Shown piece after piece: positions 9,432 to 62,679 of a DNA stretch of 64,000 bases (position 1 is its first letter; the number at the start of each line of letters is the position of its first letter). Position numbers and translations under genes: made by a program. The notes below the pieces were generated by a model. The model made no database searches, was not told the origin of the DNA, and saw only the letters and a list, made by a program, of their open reading frames with translations. The stretch is from Antedon mediterranea. Taxonomy: Eukaryota; Animalia; Echinodermata. Location of the stretch: contig NC_092678.1 in NCBI RefSeq assembly GCF_964355755.1, positions 5,348,422 to 5,412,421 on the forward strand, written 5' to 3'.

Positions 9432-12400
9432 ATGTCGGCTTCCGTAAGTATACAGTTTTGTATTTACCATTCGGGCCTACTAATGCATTAGTTGGTGTAT
9501 AGATCAATCTACACTAACATGATTTGCACATAAAGTTATCACTTTGCTAATAATGATTATATTAATACTATATATTAATCTGGGTGGGGCACGTACGTTC
9601 GATGCGCTGTATGATGAGGGTAAAAGAACGGTTTCTTTGGTCTATGGTTTATGGTGTTCTAAAAAAAATTTACTCCTATAATTGAATTCATCCTGATGAT
9701 GGTACAGCATTAATCATGTTTTTTTTTCTTCCTCTTATTTACACATATAAAATATAAGATTGTAAATAAAGCATATCAAGGAAAGGGCTGAAAAGTTCAA
9801 CCCCTTAACATTAAAAAATAGTTAATAAATAATAATTTAAGGGCTATTTTTCTAACAATTACTATACAGTACATAAAACATTTTTTAAACAAACTTTCTC
9901 TTCGAATATATAATTCTCTTGTAGAAATAAATAAATATATTAAGAAACAAATGTGTTTTTTTGTTAAGAAACCTTAAATCATCTGTGATATAATTTAATA
10001 GCTTTGTTCCAGAATACCTGATATAATGCTGTCCTATATTATTTCTATATTTTGGTATATATACACATTTTCTCTTTGAAAGATCATTAAAAAACAACTG
10101 CAATCCATGTTTTTCAAAACAAAATACGACTTTAAATCGATAAAATAAAGAGCAATATCGAAAAACTAATTAATTTAGTTGTTAATTTGTGTTTGGTATT
10201 TCTAGATAGGAAGATCACTAATTTATTGTTTTTATTATTCAACATCCTAATGATAAGAAATAAATACAAACGACGCTAGTGTACCGTAATTACCAAGGTA
10301 TATTTCTTTTAATTCACTATTTCAGAAAGACTTTAATGACTTGCTTTATAATGTAAGCCGTAAATACGAAGGAAGCAAATTGAAGGAGCTAAGATTTCTG
10401 CTGAATGACCATTGTGATGGATCGACGTTGGCTGATAAACACGGAGGAGCATTCGATTTGTTTCGTGAACTCGAAACCAAAGGTTATATTTCAAATGATC
10501 CTACAGATGTAGAGATTTTGCTAGACACTGCGGAGGAAACCGAAACGGCTGATGCTTCAAAATTAATCAAAGCTTTTAAAACGAAGTATCCAAACATGGA
10601 GACAGGCTACGAGTATACAAAGAATAATCAAATAACACCATTTCGCAAAAAACTTCTAAAAGTTATAAAGAAAAATACAAATGGGGTACAATCTATGGCT
10701 GTCATTTACAAGCTAGGACATGTTCCGTTTGATAGTAAATGGGATTTCATTTTCAGACTTGAGAAGGATTGTAAACTGATTAACACACCAGACTCACTGA
10801 AAGAATTTGCAAAATGTTTGTCTGAAAATGCGTCAAAAATACTTCTCGGTATGTGACGTGTAAACATTATTTAATGACAAGTTAGAGAATAGTTTCAGTT
10901 TATTTATATTTACCAACATACAGTGTAATCATGATTTTTAACAATACAGTAATAACTTGTGGCAAGTAGAATTGGATACTGAAAAGACCCGGTAACCATT
11001 GTGATTACCCAATACTGAAATTAGAAAAATCATTCATTGTTATTTTGTGCAGATGATTATTGATAGGATTAATTAACCATAATATGGTGGGATTGCATTA
11101 TTATTGGAATCTTTTTCAAAAAACACATTTTATGCAAGTGTATACAATATTTAAACTTATTGTTTCAGGTACATCGCAGCCAGGTACATCGCAGTCAGGT
11201 ACATCGCAGTCAGGTACATCGCAGCCAGGTGCATTGCAGCCAGGTACATCGCAGCCAGGTACATCGCAGCCAGGTACATCGCAGTCAGGTACATCGCAGT
11301 CAGGTACATCGCAGCCAGGTGCATCGCAGTCAGGTACATCGCAGCCAGGTACATCGCAGTCAGGTACATCGCAGTCAGGTACATCGCAGTCAGGTACATC
11401 TACGGAATCTCCAAACACTACTAGAGACGGAGGCGCAAGTCAAGAAGGTAGAAATACACATCAATACACGTACAACTTTAATATTTATTATTTATTGGTA
11501 TAAAAATTCATTTATTAATATACAATTTTTGGCTTCTACAATTGTTTCAGGTACATCTAAGGAATCTCCAAACACTACTAGAGACAGAGGCGCCAGTCAA
11601 GAAGGTAAAAATAAAAAGTGTCAATGTTTACCATATTTTACACAATAATTGCCTTTTAAAATAATTTCTTCAAACTTTCCTATTTCTGTAATTTCTTTTT
11701 TTATTTAAATAAATTAATTTAATTCAGCTTTTTCAATTTCTATAAAATAAGAAGCTTAACTATATCACAAATATCTATATAATGGTTTTTTTCTCAAAAT
11801 CAACCAATCTTGCTAAAACTATTCATAGACACAGTGTAGATGATGATACCTCATAAACACTCACCATTGAAAATTAATTATTTATTCGTCATTTCAGATG
11901 AGACTGATAACCCAGGTGCTGCAACAAGTACTACACCTATGGTAATAAACGATACGGATAGGTATAATAACATAGCATAAAGCTACATAATGTGTATATG
12001 TTAATGTGTACTTCGTTAATCTTTGATTACCTTTTGAGTGCAATGTTTCGTATTTGCTATATGCGATATTTTATGTTTAACTTCAATGTTTTTATATAAT
12101 AAATTGCGATAAAAAAGTATACTAAACAAGTTAATAAGGTAATCCCACACAAAACTATCAGATCTTGTATAATTCCCATGGTGTTCTAATTATGTCTACT
12201 ACACATTAACACTGGCGAAGGCAAAGAAAGACGTCCCTATATATTTTTGTTAACCCCAAGAGTTTGCCCAAAAATTGATCTGCACCGTATTTTTAGTTAT
12301 ACTAACATGTAACTAATTTTATGACAGAATGTTGCCTGCCTGTTGTAGTCTTTTTCCATGGCCATCTGGGGATCAAAAGAAGAGTTTGAAGGTTAAACAT

Positions 12401-15400
12401 TAGTTTTTAAACAAATTGCCAGAGTACGTGTTTAATGCTAATGGTTTTTATTTTATGAATAGGAAACCTCCATTTGAAATAAGACAACTGAACGGGATTA
12501 AAAAATTGATCGAAGGTAATTTTCAACTAACAATACACAATATAAAATATATGTAAATGTGAAACATTATATTACAAATCCAAAGGCAAATTATAGAAAA
12601 TAATGACAATGCTGTGGGTATCAGTGGCTGGATCTCAATGGAGATACAAAAAACAAGGCCATATACATGGCTGAAGTCGCGTGCTCAAGTTAGTGTTTAC
12701 CGACCAACCGACCGACATAGTGAGCTGTATAGTCGCGTTGCACGCGACTAAAAAAGCGAAAAGTAAAACAGCCAGAAAAGTTAGCAGAGCCCTTCATCAG
12801 TGCATTAATTATATGAATTATATGAACTAGATGGCACGCTCGCTTCGCTCGCGTACCATCTAGGGGTGCTCACAGATGGTTCTCGAATACAGTAGAATCC
12901 ACGGACGGGGACTTTTTTGGGACACTAAACAAAAACGGAAGTGTCCCCCTAATTGGGGTATTCAGAAATAGAGACAACAAAACCAATACTGGATTCCATA
13001 AAGGACAATTAATTTATGTGGATTAAAGAAATTAGGGAGAAATGGAAATGTATGTACGGGAATTGGGCGGCACGTGGTGGTGGTGATGGAACCGCAGTAA
13101 TAAAGTTGATTGTATTTATATATTATAAGAACCAAACTAAATAAATAGACCTAGACATTCTGCGAAATGGAAATCGGAAATTCAAGCTCCTATTCAGTGA
13201 AAAATTAAACTGTAGTCTACCTAAATATTTAGGGCAAATCATCGGTTGTGGTGTTGAAATTCCTGTAAACATTTGTGTGAACCAAACTGGGTCGAATTTC
13301 TGTCATGAGTACTGATTTGTTGGCCTGTGATTTATGACGCCTAAGGGATCTATCTAGACTTATTTTTTAGAATAATGTACGTACCTGTCAGATACAATTG
13401 TCTTGTGTCGTATAATAAATAAGTACTGTAATAGTTACTGAAGTTACTATTACAATCTCGTCAATGAAAACACGAAAATGTATATGCACTTACTTATGAA
13501 AACGTATACAGTATTATACTCAGTTATTGAAACAGTAGGTTTAAAAAAGTTTCGTTTGTCTGTAAAATGATGTAATCAAGCTGTTTACACGAGTCTTAAT
13601 TTATAAGCACATCAATAATAAAATAGTTTATCTATCCTGTAATTGGCGAGATTATGGTCGCTGTTGAATGAAATAAAGCCAATCGGTATCATATTTGTAC
13701 AGAAACGTTTTCGCGGCCGAAGGGTGTAATACCTAAATTCGTTGTATTATCGTCAAGAACTAACTGTAACTAAACTTACATAGAAAGTAGGGTATCATAA
13801 ATTTGGCCTTAGCACTCGGGGGAGTGGCTAAGATGAAGTCCGTGGGACTACTAAATATAAATTGTAATGAACCTCGAGGGACATAAATAGGAATATTTCA
13901 TGTTTCATTATCAATGTATAATAAATGGAAACTGTTTACCGATTCAAATAATAGAAATTGGTTTTTAACATTTTCCGAACCTATTGCAAGTTTATTCTCA
14001 AAGGGCCCATATATTTACCTACCGTATGTGTTAAACCAAGGGCTCATAAATTTACCTACAGTACTTGTGTTAAACCAAACTCTGGCAGACTGAGAGATTG
14101 GGATGTTCCATTCATCGCAAATCAATACATTTGTATAATCGTATATTAAATCTATCAAAATAGTATTTTTTAAAGAAAATCGGCCTGTCTTCAACATTAT
14201 GATGGTGTACTCTAGCAATCTATCAAAATAGTATTTTTTAAAGAAAATCGGCCGGTCTTCAACATTATGATGGTGTACTCTAGCTGTTCAACCGGTTTTC
14301 AGCTATTAAAAACAATTATCGTAGGAGGAGATAGGAAAATGCGAAGCCTCCTCGCTATGTAACATTAGGGTTGAGGGATGGGAAAGCGGATAGGTACAAA
14401 GAGGAACAATTTTTAAATATATTCTTTATCCACTGAGTAACGAAATATTTTGTTCATGTTTTATAGGCCTATAAATAATATACCTCTAAATACAGTAGGC
14501 CTAAAACATTTGCGATTTAATACTTTGTTAAAACTGTCACTGTCATAATCGATTGAAATATTAAAGTACATGTCACGATACACCACTACGACGTTTATAT
14601 TTTTGGTAATTATTAATTAATACAAACGTTGAGAAGGAACTGTCAGTATAAAGTTTATTTGTATATCTAACAGTAGAGCCTATCCACAGTCTCAGTAATA
14701 AAGTTTATATTTTTATATTACATCTAACAGTAGGAACATTCACAGTAAGAAATGTTCGATTCAAATGAAAAATAGTTAATAGGTATTTACAGTATTGTCA
14801 AAGTATTGCAAGTTTATTCTCAAAGGGCCCATATATTTACCTACCGTATGTGTTAAACCAAGGGCTCATAAATTTACCTACAGTACTTGTGTTAAACCAA
14901 ACTCTGGCAGACTGAGAGATTGGGATGTTCCATTCATCGCAAATCAATACATTTGTATAATCGTATATTAAATCTATCAAAATAGTATTTTTTAAAGAAA
15001 ATCGGCCTGTCTTCAACATTATGATGGTGTACTCTAGCCGTTCAACCGGTTTTCAGCTATTAAAAACAATTATCGTAGGAGGAGATAGAAAAATGCGAAG
15101 CCTCCTCGCATTTTTTTGGCGGGTATTTTTCAAGATGGACATCCATTAGACAGTGTATACCACGATCGGAAAACACCCCTATTTGGGGCAAATCGTTGAA
15201 CCTAAATTCGTTTTAATCGTCAATAACTAATTATCTAACTCAATTTAATTAGTAAACAGGGTTACATCAGGCGGTTAAAATCAGTACCGAAAGTACGAAC
15301 CAACTTTACATACCATCGAGTGAAAATTCTAGAAGTAAGGCGCGATTTACCGAATTTTGCCCTTACGTAAATTTATATATAGATAAAAATTACTACATAT

Positions 15401-15979
15401 ATCTATTATTCTGGAATTCTATTCTGAAGTAATACGTTTCCAATTTAAGAATCATTTTTAAATGTATTCACAATTTCAGTTTATATTCCATAAAATAGAT
15501 AACAATATAAATTATTTTATGGATAGATGATCACAAAATTGAAGACCAAAGTTTGAAAAAAATATACTACGCGTTATGAACATTCACAACAACTTCATTT
15601 TGAAATACCTCGGACAAAAATCTTTCTTTTTATTTCAGATCATAAACAGTGGTTTCAACTATGTTGGTGTGGTTCAGGGATCCTGTTGATAATTACATTT
15701 GTCGTAGAATTTGTGATCATTTATCGTACTTCTTCAATAGCGGGACCTATAGTTGTTTTAACCATTTCTATACTACTATTTTTAGTTTTTATTATCTTGT
15801 CGTTCATTCTTGGTGGAGATTATGCAAAATGTATCGGTTTTATTGCAACAGTTGTAACCATAATACCAACTTGCTTTGCGTTATATTTCTTGGCGAATGA
15901 GATAGCACGTAATAATAGTAACGAAGGTATAACAACACATTTACCGTCGATGTCTAATGAAACAACTGTGGTTAAGTAA
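9432..15979 (+). CDS. Gene A: tandem-DED-like / GTSQ-repeat linker / 3-TM protein, ~441 aa
   Basis: Exons 9432-9443 (MSAS), 10326-10848, 11169-11447, 11551-11604, 11898-11961, 12463-12515 and 15639-15979 give 1326 nt, open and phase-consistent. DED-like FNDLLYNVS..LKELRFLL..DLFRELETKGYIS is followed by ITPFRKKL..WDFIFRLEK. The last exon has three hydrophobic helices. Confidence 0.8.
9850..10105 (-). mobile_element. LINE 3'-end fragment in gene A intron 1
   Basis: YIPKYRNNIGQHYIRYSGTKLLNYI resembles the C-terminus of CR1/L2-group ORF2. Confidence 0.5.
11166..11400 (+). repeat. Coding 15-bp minisatellite, (GTSQ[P/S]) x15
   Basis: CAGGTACATCGCAG[C/T] tandem units inside exon 3 of gene A. Confidence 0.95.
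12576..12801 (-). mobile_element. Penelope-like repeat fragment, interrupted by a short Helentron-like element
   Basis: Reverse-complement match to 45235-45375 (GAGATCCAGCCACTGATACCCACAGCATTGTCATT; CTGATGAAGGGC). Confidence 0.5.
12652..12754 (+). mobile_element. Short DINE-1/Helentron-like interspersed element
   Basis: AACAAGGCC..GTCGCGTG..(CCGA)n..AGTCGCGT.CACGCGACT hairpin; five related copies in the window. Confidence 0.7.
12827..15383 (-). mobile_element. Non-autonomous Helitron in the last intron of gene A
   Basis: On the minus strand it reads A|TC...hairpin...CTAG|T. Termini and internal blocks are shared with 34834-36382. Internal direct duplication 13982-14357 vs 14804-15108. Confidence 0.8.
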
Positions 15980-17898: not shown

Positions 17899-20800
17899 AT
17901 GTCGGCTTCCGTAAGTATACAGTTTTGTTATTATTTACTATTTGGGCCTACTAATTATATTTGGTGTATAGATTAATCTACAAAACAAAAATATAAAGGT
18001 AAAGGTAAAGGTAAAGGTATTCATATTTGTCCTCAAGCTTAACTGGAAACTGAGGAAATTCGGATTAGGCCCTCACATAAATTATTCATTTGAAATTTGG
18101 GTGGGGCACGTATCTTGGGCGCGTTGGTTCCATTCTTCATTTTTTTGCTGTCGACCTCTTTCCTGTTATTTAACTTCTCCTGGTGAAAAGATCATAACAA
18201 CATTGCATACTACAGATATGTCGATAATTTCTTCAAAAGAAAATAAGATTTAAATAGACAAAATAAAGAAAAACATAATTAAAAACTATTGAATTGAGTT
18301 GATTTTTGTTTTGATAGCAATGTTTTCTATACTAGGCCAATACCATTGTCAATATTGCGCGGTACTCAGATGGGAAGATCACTAAACTTATTTCCTAATT
18401 AATTATTCATGATAAGAAAATAATTCCTAAAAACGATCTCGGTGTAATTGCTAAAGTATATCTTTAATTCACTATTCCAGAACAACTTTGATGACTTGCT
18501 TTTTGATGTAAGCCGTATATACGAAGGATACAAATTGAACGAGCTAAGACTTCTACTGAATAAGCGCTGTGATGGAGCGACGTTAGCTGAAAAACGCAAC
18601 GGAGCACTGAATTGGTTTCGTGAACTCGAAGCCAAAGGTTATATTTCTAAGGAACCTACAGATGTAGAAATTCTGTTGTCGTTGCTAACGAAACAGAAGT
18701 GACTGACGCCGTATCCTTAATAGACGATTATATAAAAAAACATCCAAACAAGAAGGAAAACGTTACGAAGGGCCTACCAATCACACCATTTCGGAAAAGA
18801 CTTCTAAAAGCTGCAAAAGCAAACCAGAGGGATGTACAACTTATGTCTCCTGCCTACAAGAAGCTCCAAAATATAAAATTTGACAATATTTTTGATTTCA
18901 TTTTTAAACTTGAGCAAGGTTGTGAACTGGAGGAGGAGAACCCAGACACAATAACAAAGTTTGCAAAATGTCTGTCAGAAAATGCTTCAAAAATACTTCT
19001 CGGTAAATATTATTTAATGACAAGTAAGAGAACAATAATACAAAAATAGAGTAATAAAAACTTATGGCATTTAGGTATGGAATTGAAATTGATATAGAGA
19101 GTTGGCATAACCAGAATGAACAACAAGTAGAATTGGATACTGAAAAGAACCGGTAGCTATATTACCCAATACTGAAATTAGAAAAATCATTTCCTTGTTA
19201 TTTTGTGATAATTATAATTCATATGATTAATTCAATAGAATAACCATAATATCGTGGGATTGCATTATTATAGGAATCTTTTTAAAAAACAAGGCCAACA
19301 GCCATTAAGTCGCGTGCTAGAATGCATAGTGATACCGGACCGACAGACAGACCGACCGACCGACCGACATAGTAAACTATAGAGTCGCGTCCACGCGACT
19401 AAAAACATGCATTTGATGCAAGTGTATACAATAGTTAAACTTATTGATTCAGGTACATCGGAGCCAGCTACATCGCAGTCAGGTACATCGCAGTCGGGTA
19501 CATCGCAGCCAGGTAGGCCTACGTCTACGGAATCTCCAAATACTACTAGAGACAGAGGCGTAGAAGGTAAAAATAAAAAGTGTCAAATTACCTTGAATTA
19601 CCTTCAAATGTTTTACACAATAATTGCCTTTTAAAATAATTTCTTCAAACTTTCATATTGCTGTAATTTCTTTATTTACTTAAATAAATTAATTTTATTT
19701 AAAAAAATTAATTCTCTTCTCCGTCTCAGAACGTACGTGGCGGAGAAGAAGGTAACATTCGAATACTACTATAGTTTTCAGTCAATAATCCAACCTGCTC
19801 TTATCGGGTCCTTAATATTTATCAGACAATCTTTCTTTAACAAGTTCAAGCGAATTTATTTATATAAACGCTACCTGAAACAATTACCAACAATAATACA
19901 TGGAATAGTTGACCATTGCTTCAATCTTATCGATAATGTGGAAAACAAGGAGATCATTTGAAAACTATGATCTTGATAATATTAAAAACGTCATTCCTAT
20001 TAGGCCTACTGTAATTTTATTGTGATTTATTTAGGCCCCAATTAGTTCAATTAAATTATTCGAAATAATTAATTCAGCCTCAGAATATCTAGTGATTTCT
20101 TCAGTATTACACAATCGTCTGATTTTTTCAAAATTACTTTCTTTAAGACAGTGTATATAATTACACCCTCACCATTAAAATAAATTTCATTTGTCATTTC
20201 AGATGAGCCTGATAACGCAGCTGTTGCCACAAGTACTACACCTATGGTAATACACGATAGGTATAACTAACATAGCATTATGCTATAGTAAACAATTATT
20301 AGGGTAATCCCACACAACTAAACCGTTATATGTTACTTATGTTGCACTTATTTACAGGAGGTTATACAAATTATTATATTAATTAAATAAATCATTATTT
20401 AGGGGGAGACCTACAATACGCGCTATGGTTTGTAAAACCTAAGTTGTCCGAAAGTGAAATTACTACATAGTATTTTCATATCCAGTTGAGCCATATAATA
20501 ATTTTACCATTTCCCACCCTCTAATTTTCAAAATGGATCTATACATCGTAACCAAGTGTTATACTATAGGAACTACTTTATAACATTTGCGCAATTGAAT
20601 CAACATAGAATTTCGCCTTCCTGATGTACGGTCCATAGTCATTTGGTGGATCCAAAGAGTAATTGAGGTTAGCATTGAGCTTAAACAATTGTTGCCTGAT
20701 TACATGGTTAATGACAATGGTTTATATTGTTTATTTCGATTAGGAACACTGAAACAAGCAGACTGAAGAGGATACAGAATTTTACAAAAAGTAATTATCA

Positions 20801-21292
20801 ACTGACAATATTTATATTCGATCTTTAGACTGAATAACAATCAAAAATGACATTGCGTTATGAGCATGACTAATATAAACTTATATATATATATATATAT
20901 TCATCATCATAAAATATATTTTTATATAAATAAATTTATTTATTTTTATTTCAGAAAATAAAAAGCTGTGTGTGTTTATTATTATATGGACACTATTGCT
21001 CCTATGTATTGGCTCGGAATTCGTAATCATTTTTTGTACTTCTTCAATAACGGGATTTTTAGTTGTTTTTATAATTTCTATAATATTACTTGCAATCTCT
21101 ATTTTCTTGTCAATCTGTTTTGGAGAAAAGTTTGAAAAATGTATTACTGCAATTGCAATAATCGGGACTTCAATTCCATTTTTTGTCATACTTTATTTCT
21201 GGGCGATTGAAAAGATAGGAGATAACAGTAATGAAGATATTATAACAACACAGTTACCGTCGATGTCTAATGAAACAACTGCTTTTATTTGA
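17899..21292 (+). pseudogene. Gene B: tandem-DED-like / 3-TM paralog with a 1-nt frameshift in DED1
   Basis: Exons 17899-17910, 18481-19002, 19453-19566, 20203-20260, 20744-20790 and 20955-21292 total 1091 nt. The frame changes at about 18679 (DVEILL | VANETEVTDA). Everything else is intact, so a sequencing error is possible. Confidence 0.7.
19287..19404 (+). mobile_element. Short DINE-1/Helentron-like element
   Basis: Same structure as 12652-12754. It is absent from the paralogous intron position in gene A (~11120), so an empty site is visible. Confidence 0.75.
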
Positions 21293-23375: not shown

Positions 23376-26300
23376 ATGTCGGCAAAACAGGGGAGTAAAT
23401 TATCTACCGTAAGTATACGATTTCGAAGGTTTTTACTTAGTAGTATCTGGTACTAATAACTATGGTGTAAAGTCTATAAACTATCCATTGTAATCTGTTT
23501 GAAGAGATAATTTCTTTGACGGCGGTGAATGCAAATGAATTTGAATTAGTTGCTTCTAGTGAGGGGTAATTACAAAACAAAGATTTGCCATTTGATAGGA
23601 CTACCGTGCCTCTGGGCGACAGTCATATCCGACAGTATTATACTGCAAGTACAGGCCTACTGTATATTTACATAGATGATAATTGCACGCTGATTATTCA
23701 TTCATTACTGATACATCAGGATATTTTTTTCAATTTCATATTTTGTTTACCGTTACAGACAACAGCAAGTCCCGATACATTCAGAAAATTACTTGAAGAC
23801 ATAAGTAATGCATATAGTGGTAAAAAAAGATATTTTTGGTTAAGACTTTTATTAAATGACCACTGTTCAGGAGGTATGTTAAGTAAGCCTGTAGATGGCA
23901 TGACAGGGCTCGATCTGTTTAATGACCTCAAAGATCAGCATTACATTTTTCCTGATCCTACAGATGTCGAGATTCTGTTAGATATTGGTACGGTAACAAA
24001 GCAGGCCTCGGTTGTTGAATTAATAAAAGATTTCAAAGAGAAGTATCCAAATACCGATGCCAACTACAAGTCCAAATGCAAAAAAATATCAACATTTCGC
24101 AAAAACCTTTTCAATGCTGTAAAGTCAAATGGTAATCCTGTAAAAAAAATGCATGCTAGCTACAACGACGAATTAAAAGGAGAAGTGTTTGATGATATTT
24201 GGGATTTTGTGTTCAAGCTGGAAAAGGAAGATTGCTTGACCGAGATTTCTAAGGAAAGATTTGCAAACCTACTCGACGGGAGGGCAAAGAAGATACTTCT
24301 AGATGCAGCGAATGGAAATGCACAAGGTGAATAAGCAGTAATAATCATTCCTTCTATTTGAAATCGTTTGAATTATTACAATAACAATAGGTATAAAAAT
24401 GACCAATACAAACTGTTAAAATAGCAATGCAAGAAAGAGTAGTAAACATGATGCTTTGCATAGGCCTATTAGAAAATGAACATAATTGTCAAATAGACCG
24501 TTTTCAATTTAGATTTAAAAATTGTTTACCTAATTCTCTGTCCTATTAAATATCACATTCATAATATTCGTAATAAAATGTCTTTTTTTTCTGAATATGG
24601 TTCAGACTTTAAAACCTGAAGATGTAATAGAAAATAAGAAACATTCTTGACTTTTTTGTTCTTCTGGTATTATAGTTGAAGAAGAAGCTTCTGAGGTATA
24701 CACACCCTACACACCCGAGTTGGCCAGAGGACAAGGTATTATTATTTATTATCAAAATAATTTCAACCAATTTTAACAATATATCATGACGATGAAGATA
24801 TCAACTTCCATTACTTACAGTTGATTTTCATTTTGTTTTGGAAAACTGTAACTCTAACCATAATGTTCAAAGAAGAGAATTCTCATCCCAAATTAATTAA
24901 TTTATATTCACAATTTACACAGTAAGCAAAATAATTCCCTTTTTTACTTGTATCATACAGTAGTCTACTTTTAATAAATCATAAATAATTGTGGAGTTGT
25001 TGGATCGAAGTAGCGATGACCTTACAACATACGTTTTGTTTTTGTAGTATCCATTAGCCTGATTTCACAAAATCTTAAAGCTCAGGTACAGGCATGAATT
25101 TTAAATATAATATCTGGTTAATTGTACATAAATCAAATATGTGTAACAGAAATCAAGATGAAAAACCATGAATTTCCCCTAATATGGTCAAATACAAAAA
25201 CCAGGAAGACTTTTTTTCAGTAGTTAGGTAGTTAACATAATGTAATAACATGTCTGGTGACTCCCTAGAAGGTGAAAAAAGATGGTGGATATACGGTGGA
25301 TAATTTTTGCTATAGCATGAAAATAAAATTCTGAAGTTGAATAAAAATACCAGAAATGTAAAATTCAAGTTATATTGCCTATATTTAGTCATCTGATAAT
25401 ATTTTTTACCACACCGTTTATTTTTCATAGCTTTTTAAAATGCCTCTCTATTTTCAAAATTTGTGTACAAAAGAATAGATTTTACTGTGTAATTTGAACT
25501 ATCCCCACACTGATATGAAAGTGCTAATTTTCAAAAAACAAATAAAATTCCAAAAATTATGAAACATAGGGGAAACTATAGATCGATAATTATTGGAATG
25601 TATGATCAATAGAAATGTTTTGCCCGCACCTGGCCTTTAACGAGACTGCCAATAAAGTGTAGCTAATATTCCGATTCTCGTGTACCATGTTTGAAAGAAA
25701 GAATGTACAGAATAAATTTTAGGTTGACTTTTTCAGGTGAATATCATCACACAGGAGAAGAAGAAAATAAACGGATGATTGAAGAACCTTCCACATCCCA
25801 GACTGATCCGATAGAAGAAGGTCATATTAAATATCACATTCATAATTAATCGTAATAAAATGCCTTGTTTTTCCGTATTATGAGAAAATTGTTCAGACTT
25901 CAAAACCTTATGATGTGGCAGAAAACAAGAAACATTCTTGCTTTTCTGTCACTGAATAACAATATTTAATATATGTTTTATAGATATAACATATCTAATC
26001 TTAATTTTCAAAGATGAATCTTCTCGTTTAGTTGAACAAGAAGGTTCTGTGGAATCCACACCCGAGTTGGCCAGAGGACAAGGTAATGTTATTTATTATC
26101 AAAATAATTTCCACCAATTTTGAAAATTTATCATGACGATGAAGATATAAATTTCCATGATTTAAATTTGATAGGATAACTATAACCCTTCATAATGTTC
26201 AAAGAAGAAAACTCTCATCCCATATTATAAATAACTTATTCTAGTGACGAGTGCATATCATGTATTGTTTTTCTTGTTTACTTCAGTCATCATCAAAGTT

Positions 26301-33732: not shown

Positions 33733-33748
33733 ATGTTGAAACATCAAA

Positions 33749-37499: not shown

Positions 37500-38019
<520 letters not shown>

Positions 38020-44400: not shown

Positions 44401-44552
44401 TATTTGACAAAGATGGTGGTTTCTTAAGACGAATTGATGAAACTAAGGATGCTATTGATCTTCCAAGTTCAATCACTGTAATCTCAAAAAGACCAAGAAG
44501 ATTAGCAGTTGTAAATTCAGGAGGGAAAAATGTGAAAGTATACAATTACTAA
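41491..44552 (+). CDS. Gene E: coiled-coil/filamin/NHL paralog with a divergent death-fold-derived N-terminus; 5' end unresolved, possibly a pseudogene
   Basis: The terminal exon 42987-44552 is open (522 codons) and homologous to gene D. Upstream phase-consistent exons are 41880-41951, 42171-42308, 42421-42546 and 42667-42755. A degenerate DED2-like exon ends at 41731, with an apparent frameshift at the T7 run 41527-41533. Further candidate exons lie at 38520-38545 and 41109-41367. Confidence 0.6.
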
Positions 44553-46791: not shown

Positions 46792-47859
46792 TTACAAGTA
46801 GGATACAAAGATGTTTTGTGTTGGAATATTTCTTTCCAGTTCATCATGACGAATGATTCTTCTCCTCATCTCTGAAAACCTTTCCATCAGTAAATGTTCT
46901 TCCAATGGTGATGGCGTCAGTCTGGCTGTTGGATGAAATGGCTTGAGCAAACCAAATCAAGAAGTGCTTGAACAAAAAAGGCAATGAAGTTTCACCACAT
47001 AAATTCAGCTTTGTTGAGACTGATGATGATGATGTTGATGATGATGGTGGTCATAGTGATGCTGGTCTTTCTCATAAAAGATAACAAAGACACAGAGATG
47101 GCTGCAGTCGCGTGCTCAAGTTAGTGTTTACTGACCGAACGACCAACCGACCGACCGACCGACATAGTGAGCTGTAGAGTCGCGTTGACTATTTAAAATA
47201 AATTTTACTTGGCCTTGTCTGGGATGGATTGAGGTGTGTGAAGGCACCGTACAAGCATTGGTCCTGACGTCCCATCAGCCTTTTCAAACATCTCTTTGTT
47301 TGAGCTTCTCAATATTTTTGGGTCTTTATTAAGACGAAACCTGAAAACAAATTGAGAATTTTACCCAGTAAACTGGAACACAAAAAGGAGATAAGGAGAT
47401 GACACTTCCAAGCATATAAGAACAATAAATGACATAAGACAGGAAATACAGTATTGTGTGAATGATGACATCATATTACACACAGTAATAAATAGTTTGT
47501 ACTGAGCAAGCTCAAAAGTGGAAAAGACATCAATACCTGTATGCCATTTCTTGACTGAATTCATTTGTTTCTTTATAGTGCTTAGGTTGTGGTGGCGTAC
47601 CAGGACGTGTTTTCATTGCGATGTGCCTTTTGCTCCGAGCAATTATAATGGCCCAGAAGTGACTTTCGTCGTTGCCTAAAACGTTCCTCCATTATTTGAC
47701 GTTTTTCAAATGCAAAACGAGCACATTCTCCTTTTTTTAAACAAAGTAGTTGATTCCTACAGTTAAAAAGAAAAACATTTTTAAACTTAGTTTACACAAG
47801 TACAACTCAACAATAGCAAAATACCTCGACGAAAAGGCGGCAAGAATATTTCTCGGCAT
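46792..47859 (-). pseudogene. Four-exon antisense gene remnant of unknown function
   Basis: Exons 47859-47825 (MPRNILAAFSS), 47756-47537 (one frameshift), 47340-47209 and ~46957-46792 (..PFHPTARLTPSPLEEHLLMERFSEMRRRIIRHDELE..). All introns are phase 2. Partial copies lie at 57990-58405 and 59526-59635. Confidence 0.55.
47098..47192 (+). mobile_element. Short Helentron-like element
   Basis: ATGGCTGCAGTCGCGTGCTCAAGTTAGTG..(CCGA)n..CATAGTGAGCTGTAGAGTCGCGT. Confidence 0.65.
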
Positions 47860-49587: not shown

Positions 49588-51539
49588 ATGTCGGCACAAC
49601 AAGGGAGTAAATCCTCTACAGTAAGTATTTATCAATAATAATAGTTATTGCATATTGGTGTAAAAATCAACCTTGCTACCACTACTAAGTATCAATTGTT
49701 AAGCCTGGGTGGGGAACATACATACATGTTCTTGTATTTAAGGGTTAGGTCGTGAAGGCCGAGGAATATTATATCTAATTTGTTTCTAGTCATACGGGCA
49801 CAGCTTGTCACGGTCATACAAACACAAACAAAAGGTACAGATGATAGGACGGGAAGATGAGGATAGGCCCTTACCGTATAATAATGATATAGTAGCACTT
49901 TTATAACTAAATGATTTGCTTTAATGTTTTAGGAACATGCAAGTGACCAAACATTCTCAGAATTACTTAAAAAAATAAGTGATTTATATAAAAGTAGGAA
50001 GTATCGTTGGCTGAGACTTCTGCTAAATGACCACTGTTCTGGAGATTTGTTAAGTGAAAACGACATTACGGGGCACTTTCTGTTTAATCAACTCCAAACG
50101 CGAGGTTATATTTCAAACAACCCTACAGATGTCGATTTTCTAATAGACATTGCTACAATAACAGATCATGACGAGGCGTTACGTTTGACAACAGAGTTCA
50201 ACAATCAATATAACGAGGAAATCCACGATTCCAAATACAAACGTAAGCCAATATCAGAATTTCGCAAAAAACTTTTCAAAGCTTTAATTGCAAACATAAA
50301 TCCTGTGGCACCTATGGTTCTAAACTACAAAAAATTAAACGAAGAGGTGTTTGATAATACCTGGGATTTTGTGTTCAAGTTGGAGAGGGAACTATTGTTG
50401 ACGGAGGATAAAACGAAAATGAAAAGGTTTGCAAACTGCCTCGATCCGGTCGCAAGTGCTATTCTTCTAGGTATGTACATTCCTTAATCGATAGTATAAG
50501 CCTACACTGGTTTTATTTTAGGTGAGATAGGACCAGTAAGTCCCCTATTATATCCAGATCTAATCCTGTTATTTGTATCGAGTCGACGTTATCCAACTTT
50601 CATTTATTATTTCAGGTGAAGATGACAACCCGGATGCTGGAACACCCATGGTAATGCCCCTTAGGTATAATTTCAAATTAGCTAATAGTATAGTACAATG
50701 ACTGTAGTAAATCATATGATGCAGATTATGAAGAAGAATGTTCCCGCATTTTTAATGAGGATATCTTACAAACATCAACAGAAAGTTGAAACAACTGAAG
50801 TTGACAAACATTTTCATTTCCTTCCATCTAGAACTTTCCCAACCATGAAACGCGTTTTATATGCTTCTCTAAGACTATACTAACTGTATCACATTATCAC
50901 ACGTATTCAACGCAAAATGTCCTATACCTGATGTAGTCTATAGTTCTAAAAATAACACGAAGGAATCCCAAAGGTATTAAAGTTAAACATTAACCTAAAG
51001 GTATTGTTTTATTATATGTTTTGTATTCACAAATTCTGTTGATTTTTGTTCAATTAGGACCAATGAGCTAAGCCGAATGGAGAGGATTCAGAAATTCTTA
51101 AAAGGTAATTATAAAGACAATACATAAAAATAAAATACAAATGTAGGCTACACATCATCATCACTATTCTGTTCTGACAATCTATAAATAGATGTTATTT
51201 GTAAGTACTAAATAAAGAATTACTAAAAATAACAAGCACTTTAGATTTCAAATATTGTGTTTTCCCTTTATTTCAGCAAGAAGAAAGAAATGTTGGTATG
51301 TTTGTGGAGTTCTACTGCTTCTGTCCTTTATCCTTGAGTTTGTATTTATCTATGATTCTGTCCTAGCGGGATCTATGGCTATTTTCATAATTAGTATACT
51401 AGTGTTCATAGTTTTTATTGGCTTATCATTCGATCTTGATGGAAAATATGCAAAGGTTATTAACATTATTGCAACAATCGTGACTATTATTCCAACATAT
51501 TTTACGGTATATTTTTTGGCGACTGAATTAAATACTTAA
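49588..51539 (+). CDS. Gene F: minimal tandem-DED-like / 3-TM protein, ~309 aa
   Basis: Exons 49588-49620 (MSAQQGSKSST), 49933-50470, 50616-50664, 51058-51104 and 51277-51539 give 930 nt open. Confidence 0.82.
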
Positions 51540-52631: not shown

Positions 52632-55600
52632 ATGTCGGAAATAAATATATCCTCTACCGTAAGTATACAGTTGTTTACATGTTCATAAACTTTTACGTCA
52701 TGTTTATAAACGTCAGTAGGCTGAATACATTAATCTACAACAAGGTTTGCTACCAACATTGCCCATTGTTATCTGGGTGTAGCACGCACTGAAGCGTTGT
52801 GTGTAAAGTGGTCGAACAATTTCTTTGGGCTATGATTAGGTTTGGGGCGAAAAAATAAATTTATTATAAATTGTTCCTCATAAGGGACATTCATTATGAT
52901 TTTATGAATAGATAAAAAAAACGTAACCAATGAATAAAAATAAACATGTTTATGTATTAGGTTTATTATTTGATCTGTTTTAAAAAATGTATATTTTTTC
53001 TTTTCCAGGAAGAACAATTCGATAAATTACTGAAGAAAGTAAGTAAAAAATATAAAAGAAAGAAAGAATTGGTCGAGCTAAAAATTCTGTTGATGGACCA
53101 CTTTGACGATATGTCGTTACACGAAATAGAAAACATCAAAGCACTTGATTTGTTTGATCGACTCAAATCCAAAGGTTACATTTCTTATGAACCTACAGAT
53201 GTAGAAATTCTGATTGTCATTGCCGAGGAAACAAAAGAGGATGAGGCACTTCAATTACTAAATGAATTTAAAGATACGTATAAAAACAACAATCCCACGT
53301 ACAGATTTTCCAATGACACACCAATAGGAGAAACTCCGAAAATCCTTCTAAAACAAACAAGAGAACAAGGAACATCTGTGATGGGTCTAGAACGTAAACT
53401 TCGAGAATGCACTAATATGCATGAGCAAGTTTATGGTGATACACTCATGTCTGAGGAAGAACGTCAAATGGCGGATAGCACGGTATCAACGGTAAAGTTT
53501 GCAAATTTGCTATTTTTGGGTGATCATTTAGAATAAAATGATCACCTATTGTTATTTTATGAAATCTCTAATATTCTTCTTTCTGTACACTTTTTGTGTA
53601 ACAATTATCTCAAAAAGTTGAATGGCAATGATCACAAAAATTTCACAATGTCTTTCAAATACTTTAACTTAGTCCTAATAAGCTTTTCAGCGGTCAAGGT
53701 CAAGGGTAAAAATATTAGCAAAAAAAAACGCACACGCACGTAGGGTCATGCGCGTTAAAAATGTAAAAAGCTCAAATTTAAGTTTTGATCAATTTAGAGA
53801 ATGAATTAGGTCATTTGCGTGTTTCAAAAAATTACAGCGCAAAAACACGTTTTTGTGCGCGCGATACATACAATATAAAAATAAAAATACGTATTTTTTG
53901 TACAAATCGCCTTCTACTCATCATTCTTAGTACATTCACCAAATTTGAGTCCATTCATAAAATAACGCTATACGAGCAGGTTAAATATGACAAAATGCGC
54001 ACATTAATTGCACAAAAGTGCTGAAAATGGTAAAAAATAAGGCATTTTTAAAATGAAAATAATTCTTCAAAATGCACGGTGATTCCCAATTTTTTTTAAC
54101 TAATTCTGGAAGCCATTGAGTTGTAGATATGAATTCATGTACAAATTTGACGTACAAAATGACGTGACGTCATCAAATGGCCACTTGAATTTAAAAATTA
54201 GGATTTTTAATCTTTTTTTGTAGGTTATCACATTTAATAGAGCGCATCTCAGTTATTTGAGGCCGATTTTGGCTCAAACTTCAGTATGTGCTTGCTAAAT
54301 TAATTATATTTATCATGAGTTGCCACCTTTTTTCATTTTGATGACGTCATCACGACTAAAAACTTGAATAACGTAAGTCGTGTAATTCCACCTGCAGCGT
54401 ATATTTGATTATCTCACAGCTCTTCAGAATTAAAGTTGACCTTGGTGATTATGTGTTATGAAAGCTGAAGAAATTTAGATATGAATTTATATAAAAATTA
54501 AGCATATCAGATGTTGTGACGTTATGATATGGCCAGTTGAAGTTAAAAAGTAGTTTTTTTATTTCTTTAGTCAAAGTTATACAAATTTCAAAGAGCGCGC
54601 ACCGCCCTTCTACGTGCCACATTTTCTTATATATATTTGTTCAACTCATTATTTTTCGATATTGTTATCCACAAGTTTATTTTGATAATGTCATCATACC
54701 AAAAAATTAGAACATGATGTGTGTCCGTAATTTCACCAATGCTACACGTGTATATAGATATACAGTATACACTGAACATATTGTATGGAATATAATAGGC
54801 ACAACTCAGCACTATAAGCGTATAATAGGATGGCATACATCAACATTTTCCGATCGCATTAACATACGTGCATGTTTAAAAATATTATTTTATAAAAATG
54901 ATCACCTATAATTCGTCAAAGTGACGAATTATATTCTAGTTATTCTTTAATCCATTACAACAATTAGGATGGAGCTAGAACATGAGGACGAGTTCGAAGC
55001 ATCAGGAAGAGAAATGATGAACAATCCTAAATCATACGTAGGGCCCACTAATCTCAGAATATAATTTGTTTATGCCTTTTTGCTTTACTTTTCCAGAAAA
55101 ACAAATTTCATAATATGCTTTTAGATCTAAGTATTACATATGGGGGCGAGGACAAATTGCTCCAGCTAAAATACCTGCTGAAAGACCACTGTGACGGAAT
55201 GCCGCCCGACGAAGAAATACTGGGAGCACCAGCTTTGTTTCATCAGCTTGAAAAGAGAGGCTATATTTCTCATAACCCTACAGATGTAAAGATTTTGTTA
55301 GACATTACTAAAGAAACAGAAGATATGGAGGCATTTAATCTAATTCATGCTTTTAAAGAAAAGTATCCAAACAACGATCCCAACTACAAGTATACGAAGA
55401 ACAAACCAATAGAGGAAGCTCGTAAAAAAATTCTAAAACAAGCAAGAAATTATCATCTAGACTTAAATAAGATATATCATACAGATCCAGTGATATCGAT
55501 GGAGGATATGTATTGTTATATTCACTTATCTTCTGAAGACCTAAAACAAAAACAAAGAGGGTAAAGACTGTTTTTAAAGAAACGATAAATAAATGTTCAT

Positions 55601-56789
55601 AATAAATATTAAAACTTAATTTCCAAGACGCTGGCATATTTGATTATTGATTATACTGCTTACTTTAACCTGTAAAGTTTGATTGCTTGATTTTGTGTTT
55701 ATACTGGTTTATTTTCCTTCGATTAGGGCAATGCAGAAGATGTTTCACGAACTAGAAGAAAAGGAGAAAAAGACAGGTAACAATTTACAATGTAAATTTG
55801 TATGAAAATGTAATATAAATACACAGCAACTCCACTGCAATTGTTCACAATAAAAAAATAAAGAACATCAAGGCCATTCAGAAGAGGTATCTATAGTTAT
55901 GCATTCTCACAAACATAAACAACACCTAGTTAATTAGAAAGAAGCTGAACTGATTGCTACTGTTCCTTCTCGAGATGCGCCAGAGAAATCTACAAACACA
56001 ACACTGTTCATCGATTCAAGATATTGGATTTGTTATTAGTGATATTTGGCTATCTTTATTCAACAAGAACCTACAACAGTAAACCATGCCATAGTTCTTG
56101 GCAAGTTTACATTGTGCGGTTCACAACCATTTCCAGACACATGGTCGTTATACACTCAGCTTCCAGACAATGCTATTGTTTTTGGCTGCCCACGCCTCTA
56201 AAAAAAATGCTCTTCTATAGCTAGTTTCAATCCCTCCCATTGTGAACCTTGCTATTCTTTTAGCTTTCACATCAGTCCCATCCAATTTCACTTATATTTC
56301 CAGTTTCCTGGACTTCCTGCATTCTCACTCCTGAGGATGATCAAAGTACATTGATCGAAACGTCAAGAAACTCAACAGTTCTTTTCAGAACTGCATACGT
56401 GATGTACCTCAAACTTTATATCAACAATAAATAAATGTTCTTAAATTTAAATTCTGTCACAATCATTAGACATTATTGACTATAACAATCAGAGATTAAA
56501 ATGTTTACATTTGTTTATTTCAGAAAGAACAAAATGGTCCATACGATGTTGGTATGCTTTGTTAATTGTATTGGCGCTGTGTATTGTGTTGGAATTTTTC
56601 CTTTATTTTTTCAATACAACAGGATATATAGTTGTTCTTTTTATTTTGATATTCCTCGTTATTGTTTTTACTGTGTTGTCATTCATACTTGGTGAAAAGT
56701 ATTTACAAATTGTCAATTTCGTTTCAGATTTCATGACTATAATTTCAATCTTAACATTGTTGGACTTATTTGTAAATAACGATAAATAG
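52632..56789 (+). CDS. Gene G: two duplicated DED1-type exons / 3-TM protein, ~429 aa
   Basis: Exons 52632-52658 (MSEINISST), 53009-53491, 55097-55560, 55727-55776 and 56524-56789 give 1290 nt open. Alternatively these are two genes, the second starting at ATG 54969. Confidence 0.65.
53513..54940. mobile_element. Non-autonomous Helitron/Helentron-like element in gene G intron
   Basis: Subterminal inverted motifs GGTGATCATTT / AAATGATCACC at both ends. Terminal hairpin AATTCGTCA-AAG-TGACGAATT followed by CTAG|T. Confidence 0.6.
55830..56430 (+). mobile_element. Penelope-like retroelement remnant
   Basis: Degraded GIY-YIG-like tail (SIVMHSHKHKQHLVN*KEAELIA), followed by a CTGAGGA-stem-GAAAC motif and AATAAA. 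Confidence 0.5.
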
Positions 56790-58405: not shown

Positions 58406-58406
58406 T

Positions 58407-59442
58407 GTAAGCCAATATCAGAATTTCGCAAAAAACTTTTCAAAGCTTTAATTGCAAATATAAATCCTGTGGCACCTGTGGTGTTTGATAATACCTGGGA
58501 TTTTGTGTTCAAGTTGGAGAGGGAACTATTGTTGACGGTGGATAAAACAAAAATGAAAAGGTTTGCAAACTGCCTCGATCCGGTCGCAAGTGCTATTCTT
58601 CTAGGTATGTACATTCCTTAATCAGCATAGTATAAGCCTACACTGGTTTTATTTTAGGTGAGATAGGACCAGTAAGTCCCCTATTATATCCAGATCTAAT
58701 CATGTTATTTGTATCGAGTCGACGTTATCCAACTTTCATTTATTATTTCAGGTGAAGATGACAACCCGGATGCTGGAACACCCATGGTAATGCCCCTTGG
58801 GTATAATTTTAAATTAGCTAATAGTATAGTAGGCCTAATAATGACGGTAGTAAATCGTAAGTTATCAAGTAGGACGAACTGATGCAGATTATGAAGAAGA
58901 ATGTTCCCGTATATTCATTTCCTTCCATCCAGAACTCTCCCAACAATGAAACGCGTTTTATATGCTTCTCAAAGACTATACTAACTGTATCACATTAGCA
59001 CGCGTAATCAACGCAAAATGTCCTATACCTGATGTAGTCCACTAGTTCTAAAAATAACACGAAGGAATCCCAAAGGTATTAAAGTTAAACATTAACCTAA
59101 AGGTATTGTTTTATTATATGTTTTGTATTCACAAATTCTGTTGATTTTTGTTCGATTAGGACCAATGAGCTAAGCCGAATGGAGAGGATTCAGAAATTCT
59201 TAAAAGGTAATTATAAAGACAATACATAAAAAAAAATACAAATGTAGGCTACACATCATCATCACTATTCTGTTCTGACAATCTATAAATATATGGTATT
59301 TGTAAGTACTAAATAAAGAATTAACAAAAATAACAAGCACTTATACCTTTAGATTTAAAATACTGTGTTTTCCCTTTATTTCAGCAAGAAGAAAGAAATG
59401 TTGGTATGTTTGTGGAGTTCTACTGTCTTTTATCCTGGAGTT
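58407..59442 (+). pseudogene. Truncated duplicate of gene F (DED2, two linker exons, start of the TM exon)
   Basis: Near-identical to ~50243-51340 including introns. It lacks exon 1 and DED1, has a 30-nt deletion in DED2, and breaks off early in the TM exon. Confidence 0.88.
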
Positions 59443-60394
59443 ATCCTATAATTTTTAGGATACGGAAGACCCCTCCATTGTGACACTTCTATTCAGGAGA
59501 CATCTCTATTAAGGGGACCCTTTCAAGCATGGGATGGATTGAGGTGTGTGAGGACGCCGTACAAGCATTGGTCCTGACGCCTTTTCAAACATCTCTTTTG
59601 TTTGTGCTTTTAATATGTTTGGTTCTTTATTAAAAATTTTTTTTCCGGGGAAACCCATATTATTAAGGGGAAGATTTGATAGGTCCCGAATGTTTCCCTT
59701 TTGTATTATCTTAAACAAAATAGGCCTGGGTAAATATTTAGACTTATTATTCCAAACATTATATTGATGTTTGGATAGTTTTATTATCATAAATGCTGTA
59801 CTGTACCAACATTTATAACATATTATATTGCATTTTAAATTTGTTTTACGCTTTTACAATGCAGTACTGTATACATTGTCAAATGTCAATTGTACCTAAA
59901 ATACTACAATGCCTTAAATAAAATAATAAGGTCGGCTGCATAAAATAAAACTTTATAAATTTAAGTAATTTCCCCAGAGACATGTCATATTTGTTACTAT
60001 GGTAACTATTCAAACATAGTCTTATCAATGTGCATTATCAAACAATTAAAGAGGAAATTATGAACCTGTAAATTAGCTACTGCTTGCGTTTACTTTCTGT
60101 AAAGCATACAGATTTTTTGGGCACGAACAGACGGACGTGTATTGGACTAAAGTAGAAAAACAGCGATCAATTTGGAAAAAGTGAATTTGAAGTAAGTAAT
60201 TACTGTATTGTAAGCTTAACTTCTTCAACATTCGCTACCAACAGCAAAATGTATCTAGACTAGACAAAAACACTTTGGGACAACCACAATAGCCTAATCG
60301 CATTACCAGCTGCAAAACAATTGAGCTAAATTGAATTACTAATTTATTATGTAGTCAATATCAATATTATTATTATTCATTCCTCTTCCAGAAA

Positions 60395-62679
60395 ATGTCA
60401 ACAGACGACCTAACATTTGCAGATTTCCTTTCAAAATTAAGTAATGAGTATAAAGGTGAAAAAGTCTTTTGGCTGAAACTGTTGCTATTTGACCACTGTT
60501 CAGGAGCATTGTTAGGCAGAGATGACATCCCAGCACTTGAGCTCTTTAATGAGCTTGATGAACAGGGTTACATTTCTTACAAACCATTAGATGTAGAAAT
60601 TCTAGAGGACATTGCTGAAGTAACAAAGCAGAAGGAGGCTTTAGATGTGATAGAGAAGTTTAAAAATGAGCAAGCAAACACGAAAGTTGACAACTGCACC
60701 AATGGCGAACCAATAACACCATTTCGCAAAAATCTTTATAATGCCTTAAGAAAAAATTCAAAGAAAGTAAAAGTCATTGCTCCTGCCTACAATCTTGAAC
60801 ATGAAGAATATAAGAATATTTGGGACTTTGTATTCAAGCTAGAAAAGAGCAAAAGTCTGGTGGATACAAAGAAGTCAACAGAAAGGTTTGCAAAACAACT
60901 CGACAAAGATGCGGCTGATATTTTACTTGGTATGTAAACACAATCAATAATAACAATAATCATTTTATTGAAAAATAGTTAGAATTGGGAAAAGTTTAGC
61001 TTTAGCTTAAATTCAGATTGTCAGGTGTTGGGAGTTATACAAAACTATTTCTTATATATTCTGCTGTTGATTAACAAGAATATGCTGAGGCATTCACATC
61101 ACAGTTTGTTGACTCAATGACAGAAGGTAATATTTTTCTAGAATTAAAATGCATGCCCAACCCAAATTATGGGTCACAAATATAACATATCCAAATCATA
61201 GCAATTTTCTAGTCTTACGTTAGGCACTCCACATCTTGAGTCTCATTTGTTTATTGTTATATTCCTTCCTATTATCTTATGTTAACAGTGATGTTTACAA
61301 ATGGGTAAATAAAAAAAAATAAAATAAAGAAACCCTGAATTTAATGCATGATGTAAAATGAGCTTCAGACTAATGTTGGGAGATACAAACAGGGAAACAG
61401 GAAAAAAAAACCTGTGAGAAAATAAAGTAGTCTGCAACAATATATTCAATCAATCACATTAATAATGCAAATAAATTTGGATGTTGCACAGTTCAGTCCT
61501 GTCATACAGAGGAACAAGATTTGGTGGAAATCAAATTACAGTCTAAAATCCCTGGTATGGTGGTAACAATTTTGTTTAATTTTTCTTTGACATTATCGCC
61601 TAAAATTTATAAATTTAAACTTACAATACTTAGTATTGTATATTCTGTAATAGCCACTCCATAATCTCTTTCATTTTCTTCCTTATATCTATATACACCT
61701 TTTATAATGTTAAATTATTATTTTATACTAACACATATCATTGTCTCTTTTTATATTTAATCTATGTACAAGATCATTACACTATTTACCAAACTATATA
61801 CACTAATAATTTAATCAAACATTGTATACTCTATCTCTAACGAAACATTTAGATCTTCAATCAACTAAAGCCGAAGTTTAGTCATGTCCCGGAGCATTAT
61901 TTTATTTTTTTCATGAATAATTCATTACCTTAATTATTTTCTATTATAAAGAATTGCAAGATAGCTGATCTACTTCCTAAATATACTAAACCAAACCCTG
62001 TAAATAATCTCTTTTAAATATTTTTTAAAAAGTCATGTTCTTGTGCAAGTATTACAGCTTTTACCACTAGACAAAACATTTCAGTTGGCAAACTCTGTTT
62101 ACACAAGGTATTTAATTTAATCCATGCTTATATAGCGCCCTCTATAAGGTCCCATATTATATCATAGTTATTCTAATGAATTATTCATAACTTCCTGCTT
62201 TAATTGGATAGGAGAAAAAATAATGCATCCCAGGACCACACTCTATAAGTCATGACTATGAATGGATGATTTTTGGGAGCAGGAATGCTTGTAGACCAAA
62301 CCCAGTCCCGTTTTGATTCCGATCAATCAGGAAATCATTATTAATCCTCATTACATTATAAAGATTTCAGTCAACTACTTTTAACATGACTATTTCACAG
62401 GTAAATCTTCTGATGGGGAAGAACATTCAAAGGCACCCACATCACAGACTGTTGACTCCATGAAAGAAGGTAATAACATTTTAGCGTTTAAATGACACAT
62501 TAATGTAAGGAATACTTTTTTCACACACTAATAGTGCTCTGCATTGCTTGTGATACCTCTTGCCATGTAATGCTAAACTTGTTGTTGCTAACATAATTTG
62601 CTCTGTTTCACAGTTGAGACCTCTCACACAGAAGTACAAGGGGCATCAACATCACAGTATAAAGGTCTCAACAAATGTG
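60395..62679 (+). CDS. Gene J: tandem-DED-like protein, 3' end not in window
   Basis: DED exon 60392-60929 (MSTDDLTFADFLSKLSNEYKG..WDFVFKLEK..ILLG), then phase-1 linker exons 61079-61126, 61492-61554, 62401-62469 and 62614-62679. Confidence 0.72.

Follow-up and report, generated by a model that had tools for sequence, protein, structure and literature searches.

A tandem array of genes predicted to encode caspase-less tandem-DED proteins in the crinoid Antedon mediterranea

Introduction

The closest described relatives of the proteins treated here are caspase-8, cFLIP and the viral vFLIP protein MC159, in which two death effector domains (DEDs) are packed in tandem. In caspase-8 the FL motif of the second domain (DED2) is required for the formation of chains and for activation (PMC3477315; PMC7864959), the chains stop when this motif is lost (PMC3477315), and cFLIP-S terminates tandem-DED filaments (PMC7864959). 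The subject of the present analysis is a stretch of 64,000 nucleotides (nt) from contig NC_092678.1 of Antedon mediterranea, in the following called the window, in which 55 kb are occupied by an array of paralogous genes with a shared exon that is predicted to encode a tandem DED. The window proteins are like caspase-8, cFLIP and MC159 in the tandem packing and in keeping the hydrophobic motif of the first domain (DED1), and their soluble forms resemble cFLIP-S in layout. Their DED2 departs from this pattern: helix 3 and the F-L pair are missing, and there are Arg, Tyr and Trp residues particular to the family. They also differ in carrying transmembrane (TM) or NHL tails and no caspase or pseudo-caspase domain.

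The principle of combining a constant death-fold module with variable tails is known already from amphioxus, oyster and sponge. Lineage-specific expansions of DED-TRADD-N modules with variable tails are found in oyster, amphioxus, cnidarians and sponge (PMC8195603). The idea is shared with the array, and so is the setting in sessile marine animals; the tails include beta-propellers, B-box, STAND NTPases and membrane-linked forms. The crinoid proteins differ in that the second domain reads as a DED and not as TRADD-N, the region after DED1 being all-helical and aligning with caspase-8 DED2, and in that the anchor of the window proteins is C-terminal and has three helices. The word "crinoid" is absent from the main text of that paper; its source-data files might list crinoid proteins. 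Fusions of DED and NACHT occur in amphioxus, sea urchin and Nematostella (PMC2575513). In the "direct connection" described for amphioxus and sea urchin, the DED is a movable connector on NLRs and caspases, and the crinoid module is likewise found on 14 NACHT proteins among the profile matches described below; it differs in being tandem and divergent, and the window genes have no NACHT domain. A first-pass annotation of this DNA, made from the sequence alone, knew of no characterized family with this layout. That holds for the module, which was not found in these papers, but not for the principle. Literature searches, with most subscription papers outside their reach, gave nothing on a crinoid tandem DED as module or as layout, and the accessible part of PMC11359984 does not cover it. 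A crinoid module with a non-canonical second DED is apparently undescribed.

MAVS has an N-terminal death fold (one CARD), a low-complexity linker and a C-terminal one-helix membrane anchor, and BAP31 and BAR are membrane proteins said to have DED-like regions, BAP31 with N-terminal helices and a coiled-coil pseudo-DED. The likeness to the window proteins is one of layout; MAVS has one CARD and one helix whereas the window proteins have a tandem DED and three.

Layout of the array

The window, eukaryotic DNA with a GC content of about 32%, holds eight paralogous genes, all on the plus strand, and one duplicated fragment. Five A. mediterranea database proteins can be placed on it, each exon with full identity. 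The homologous exons and the fragment at 58407 were found with tblastn and nhmmer (nhmmer E 1e-143 to 6e-42); splice sites flank the shared exons, and short first exons lie upstream of A, B, C, D, F and G. Exon joins were made by reading splice sites, with database models in addition for A, B, E and F. The features are the following.

Gene A, 9432..15979, plus strand: tandem DED, S/T/Q/G/P repeat linker and 3-TM exon; open frame by splice-site reading.
Gene A exons, plus strand: 9432-9443, 10326-10848, 11169-11447, 11551-11604, 11898-11961 (or -11941), 12463-12515, 15639-15979.
Gene A shared tandem-DED exon, 10326..10848, plus strand: phase 0 to 1; Pfam DED E 5.5e-7 in the first half, under the cut-off.
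Gene B, 17899..21292, plus strand: paralogue of A; its DED exon (18481-19002) carries a 1-nt frameshift.
Gene C, 23376..28399, plus strand: tandem DED 23759-24326, acidic linker exons, 3-TM exon 28137-28399.
Gene D, 29760..33732, plus strand: tandem DED 30177-30720, two linker exons, coiled-coil/filamin/NHL exon 32137-33732.
Gene E, 38520..44552, plus strand: decayed member; RefSeq model P0146, 806 residues.
Gene E parts, plus strand: coiled coil 41130-41366, DED2 remnant 41617-41702, C-like linker exon, coiled-coil/filamin/NHL exon 42987-44552.
Gene F, 49588..51539, plus strand: tandem DED 49933-50470, short linker, 3-TM exon 51277-51539.
Gene G/H, 52632..56789, plus strand: half-module exons 53009-53491 (G) and 55097-55560 (H), then 55727-55776 and 3-TM exon 56524-56789.
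Duplicate of the gene F 3' part, 58407..59442, plus strand: 87% nt identity; DED2 end, linker exons, truncated TM exon.
Gene I, 60392..62664, plus strand: intact tandem DED 60392-60929; linker exons 61079-61126, 62401-62469 and 62614-62664 (weak donor).
Tiny remnant of a shared-exon end, 47815..47855, plus strand: nhmmer E 0.002.

The module is intact in A, C, D, F and I, and open models were obtained for A (441 residues), C (407), D (763), F (309) and G plus H (429). Five of the eight genes end in a 3-TM exon and two in a coiled-coil/filamin/NHL exon; gene I is open at the window edge, with its terminal exon not within the window, and the right end of the array would lie beyond. No caspase or pseudo-caspase domain was found after the DEDs in the 21 open reading frames (of 55) scanned with Pfam, and the gene models and database isoforms have none either.

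The co-oriented exons and the fragment had been seen in the first-pass annotation, which did not state the frameshift in gene B. The DED exon of B has 522 nt against 523 and runs into a stop at codon 78; its linker and 3-TM exon (20955-21292) remain open, and the database protein P0093 (108 residues) begins past the frameshift. In gene C the family donor of the DED exon is lost and the next donor takes over. Gene E was called degenerate at first reading; it is decayed further than this implies, having no DED1 and only about 90 nt of the end of DED2 (nhmmer E 7e-7; 80% identity to gene I). This remnant is supported by the DNA match only: at the protein level it scores 4.6 bits, which 8 of 1000 shuffles equalled or exceeded, and six-frame searches missed it. 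The first exon at 38520 is a guess. As for gene G, said to lack the second half of the exon, DED2 is indeed mostly gone, but there are two such half-modules, each with a DED1 and with DED2 reduced to its first helix region. They are probably one gene, of 429 residues (282 for H alone). Two tail types, 3-TM and coiled-coil/filamin/NHL, had also been described; these stand, with the restriction that for I no terminal exon lies within the window and that only D couples an intact module to NHL.

Low-complexity runs occur in the linkers: a 15-bp coding tandem repeat has 15.7 copies in A (11165-11400) and 4.4 in B, and gene C has a poly-Glu run at 26553-26607.

The shared exon as a tandem DED

The AlphaFold2 model of the gene I exon (41 sequences) has a pLDDT of 94 and a pTM of 0.88. 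When it was compared with 48,161 chains, the best fold match was the tandem DED of caspase-8 (4zbw; Z 15.0, root mean square deviation 2.9, 153 residues aligned, residues 8-179); MC159 gave Z 12.7 and cFLIP-S Z 11.2. The top Foldseek matches are DED assemblies of caspase-8 and cFLIP, one of them at E <= 0.001, and a profile of 153 modules of the family reaches an HH probability of 99.4 against one built from seven canonical DED pairs. Matches to PPR proteins were dismissed as summed weak repeats in designed proteins. On this structural modelling the shared exon is read as encoding a caspase-8-like tandem DED without a caspase, as was first suggested from motifs. Two six-helix death folds had been expected. 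DED1 has its six helices in the model, but DED2 has five of at least 4 residues, helix 3 missing. The Pfam DED family (PF01335) matches all 8 aligned members at E <= 1, weakly and in the first half (best 2.8e-7), but its curated cut-off is not reached, gene A scoring 30.2 bits against 35.9 with the first half only. It should be noted that the DED1 and DED2 profiles of the family barely match each other (HH probability 2.5), so that the tandem reading depends on the structural evidence and the similarity to canonical pairs.

At the FL-type pair of DED1 both positions are hydrophobic in 148 of the 153 modules, with FL in A and LL in C, D, F and I. The equivalents of F122/L123 in DED2 are VI (A), AS (C, D), LN (F) and PA (I). 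What is kept in DED2 across the 153 modules is instead an Arg (149), a Tyr (121) and a Trp (151).

C-terminal modules and the splice switch

The five 3-TM exons form one homologous family (profile E <= 5e-33). Basic residues precede TM1 in all five and glycosylation sequons occur in the tails of A and B, which fits a DED pair in the cytosol and a tail in the lumen. The loops between the helices are about 5-13 residues long, all five copies have kept a Glu close to the end of TM1, and TM2 and TM3 are plain hydrophobic. No family match was obtained for the 3-TM module (Pfam hits were weak and differing, and the Atlas gave no usable feature match, just generic helical bundles that fell short of its naming bar), and no enzyme, catalytic or ligand-binding domain was found in the TM class.

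The last exons of D and E match Pfam NHL above the cut-off and filamin weakly (E 0.004 and 0.018). They have 36 relatives at E <= 1e-40, mostly named TRIM2/3/71-like; with TRIM-NHL proteins D and E share coiled coil, filamin and NHL, and they are 31-42% identical to crinoid TRIM2/71-like records. Gene D differs in having a tandem DED instead of RING or B-box. Neither was found in D, the model of which consists of the DED exon, two short linker exons and the last exon, nor in P0146, for which only NHL and SGL are listed. In the predicted model gene D is the sole window gene that joins an intact module to NHL. Relatives combining the DED module with TRIM-NHL are P0003, P0007 and P0157, in which the module precedes B-box or RING, coiled coil and NHL; both crinoids are represented among them.

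The last linker exon of A, B and F has paired donors, 20, 14 and 14 nt apart. Use of the upstream donor shifts the frame and leads to a stop in the next exon, which gives the exact C-termini of P0005, P0093 and P0006, while the downstream donor reads into the TM exon and yields P0145 for F. In all three genes the stop of the soluble form lies 38 nt upstream of the last junction, within the distance where decay is usually avoided in mammals. In gene A the TM form has 441 residues and the soluble forms 308-310; the latter are the Antedon RefSeq isoforms P0005 and P0144, and no database record was seen for the former. In gene F the donor at 50650 gives a soluble protein of 204 residues and that at 50664 a TM protein of 309, in agreement with the RefSeq isoforms P0006 and P0145. 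The donor pair of gene C is 15 nt apart and has the reversed sense: the upstream donor, at 27247 and used in the model of 407 residues, leads to the TM exon, and the downstream one, at 27262, includes a stop. From database models and splice-site sequence the paired donors are thus predicted to give either membrane-anchored or soluble forms.

The module outside the array

A family profile made from seven window exons and one Anneissia protein was searched against 1.84 billion database entries and found 140 representatives at E <= 0.001. The two-domain module is present in 109 of these (>130 columns; 107 listed matches plus two self-records). Organism names were looked up for 30 of the 140: 29 carry the module and are all crinoid (25 Antedon, 4 Anneissia), and the remaining one is a canonical bivalve caspase. 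Judged from this sample of 29 named among 109 carriers, the module would be crinoid-specific.

Pfam found NACHT in 14 of the 140 matches, Roc or COR in 10, a death domain in 4, and kinase, TIR and ZU5 in 3 each; NHL occurs in 2, and very large GTPase, NB-ARC/TPR, UCH, ubiquitin, fibrinogen and ENTH are single cases. Two module carriers, P0061 and P0073, have a caspase domain that looks intact, with SHG and QACR motifs. The modelled prodomain of P0061 has the same helix pattern as the window module, DED2 again with five helices; its fold search returned caspase domains without telling the subtype apart, in a part of the model with low confidence. P0075 and P0092 combine the module with a death domain in a FADD-like layout. 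Fusion to several TM helices recurs in P0001 and P0038, and Anneissia P0001 has module, linker and three TM helices like the TM genes of the window.

A quick tree was made of 150 modules, after dropping isoform duplicates and self-records and reading B with X at the break. The eight window exons fall in a clade of 14 (SH-aLRT 99%) with six Antedon modules, two of them on NHL proteins; NACHT, NHL and TM carriers are each scattered over the tree. The first-pass annotation took the array for a system of its own. The sequence comparison places it rather as one fast-changing branch of a wider crinoid module that is found on NLRs, Roc proteins, kinases, adaptors and caspases.

Two observations concern clustering elsewhere. 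The caspases P0061 and P0073 and the TIR protein P0099 form one branch (97%) and come from another Antedon contig with neighbouring accession numbers, which suggests a second module cluster in Antedon. P0001 (DED-3TM) and P0092 (DED-death domain) have close locus numbers, which suggests a mixed cluster in Anneissia too.

Exchange and selection in the array

Genes C and D are 88% identical over 1.4 kb, ending at the donor of the DED exon, and the NHL exons of D and E are 83% identical; this gives D the appearance of a C-type head joined to an E-type tail. The linker exons of D match neither C nor E. In the last exons of D and E the final 151 codons differ at two sites, whereas the first 160 aligned codons have a synonymous distance (dS) of 0.45. 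The near-identical end could reflect a recent conversion or a local collapse of the assembly. An origin of the array by haplotype duplication was rejected, as protein identity between the paralogous exons is 33-81%. The members are probably still being reshuffled through unequal crossing-over and gene conversion.

The ratio of nonsynonymous to synonymous distance (dN/dS), obtained by simple counting, is 0.26-0.73 in 21 pairs of DED exons, which indicates constraint, and 0.32-1.05 in 10 pairs of TM exons; it is 0.6 for C/D and 0.79 for the D/E NHL exons. The DED exons of A, C, D, F and I are open over 170-190 codons, with synonymous distances up to 1.8. A caspase-less family with modular tails, diversifying by birth and death as first proposed, is supported.

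Repeats and remains of mobile elements are spread through the window. Broken pieces of a LINE-type reverse transcriptase lie upstream of the array at 5664-6760 on the minus strand (Pfam RVT_1 E 1.9e-31). A 490-bp repeat, 85% alike, occurs at 39549-40038 in the 5' region of gene E and at 62709-63168 just past gene I; it may be a pair of long terminal repeats (LTRs) or a solo LTR. An open reading frame of 167 codons at 63242-63745 (minus strand), with no clear Pfam match, adjoins the second copy. Three related minus-strand pieces at 46790-47330, 57990-58410 and 59520-59630 are 77-84% alike; two of the three have a hydrophobic TM-like frame broken by stops, and the 3-TM profile does not match them. 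A dispersed repeat with internal duplications is present in opposite orientations at 13940-15385 (an intron of A) and 34832-36117 (between D and E), and a 525-bp run of pure AT dinucleotides lies at 37492-38016 upstream of gene E.

Models for the function of the array

The model that we favour, tentatively and at somewhat less than an even chance, hypothesizes that the tandem-DED proteins are membrane-tethered docking adaptors in a crinoid-specific immune and cell-death network and that the soluble splice forms are brakes. The DED pair would be cytosolic and the three helices, with their short loops, would serve as anchor only. Once activated, a sensor with the module would gather the tethered DEDs into a cluster on the membrane, and the cluster would recruit module-bearing effectors, such as the caspases P0061 and P0073 and the kinases, by DED-DED contacts through an interface distinct from the FL knob of caspase-8. 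The soluble forms would compete in the fashion of cFLIP-S, and gene D would be a sensor-like version with an NHL propeller in place of the anchor.

Several results weigh against this model. Just 6 of the 153 modules have a large hydrophobic residue at the DED2 position equivalent to F122. RxDL, the charge-triad motif of tandem DEDs, is found in none of the five intact window modules and in 5 of 153 in the family; because both are rare, the example of caspase-8 does not allow assembly to be taken for granted. Caspase-8 depends on the DED2 FL motif, which is nearly absent here, and any assembly would therefore differ; nucleation of caspase-8-type filaments, as the first-pass annotation had it, is doubtful for this reason. 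The module-bearing caspases are on another branch of the tree and not beside the window genes. The TM tail of P0001 matches the window TM profile at E 0.46 only, so homology is undetectable, and the sequences suggest separate fusions. B, E, G/H and the fragment are disrupted or incomplete, protein records for C and D were not found among 1067 and 7995 scored candidates, and no database protein was seen for G/H and I. Activating and inhibiting roles fit the data alike.

It could instead be that every form acts as a decoy or inhibitor in the manner of cFLIP-S or vFLIP; the proteins would cap assemblies of module-bearing NLRs and caspases while the anchor only sets the place; this is possible but rather unlikely. 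It would agree with the TM class having no catalytic or ligand-binding domain, with the cFLIP-S layout shared by the soluble isoforms, and with the absence of the DED2 F-L pair from A, C, D, F and I, since loss of this motif halts caspase-8 chains (PMC3477315). The NLRs and caspases of the family also lack the DED2 motif, however, so its absence is not diagnostic of caps, and gene D has a possible ligand-binding propeller.

That the array is for the most part a side product of shuffled exons, with a few transcribed copies of little function among decaying ones, we regard as very unlikely. Four of nine units are broken or partial, the window contains the mobile-element remains mentioned above, and the C/D and D/E NHL ratios could be taken in the same sense; but the five intact exons have stayed open at dN/dS <1 over considerable synonymous distances, the layout recurs in a second crinoid, and there are database isoforms for A and F. 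Least probable is that the 3-TM module is itself an effector, DED-driven oligomerization giving a membrane lesion or channel and caspase-independent death: three closely spaced helices exceed the need of an anchor, the Glu of TM1 is conserved and multi-TM fusion recurs, but the module has no family match, TM2 and TM3 are plain hydrophobic and the TM exons drift fast.

The docking-adaptor model can be extended. Crinoids might have built a complete parallel death-signalling network of sensors, FADD-like adaptors, kinases and caspases with a non-canonical interface. The array would be its membrane arm, in which DED-gated three-helix proteins start or carry out death at a membrane and a frame-shifting splice switch turns them into soluble inhibitors. 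In this full form the proposal is clearly unlikely.

Perspectives

Crinoid immunity has had little study at the gene level in the literature found, and the details of DED signalling come so far from a handful of vertebrate proteins. The array shows module swapping, gene conversion and a predicted switch between anchored and soluble forms in one short region. About 100 proteins with a divergent tandem DED that lacks the FL knob would be a natural test of whether tandem DEDs can use other assembly interfaces and be insulated from the canonical pathway.

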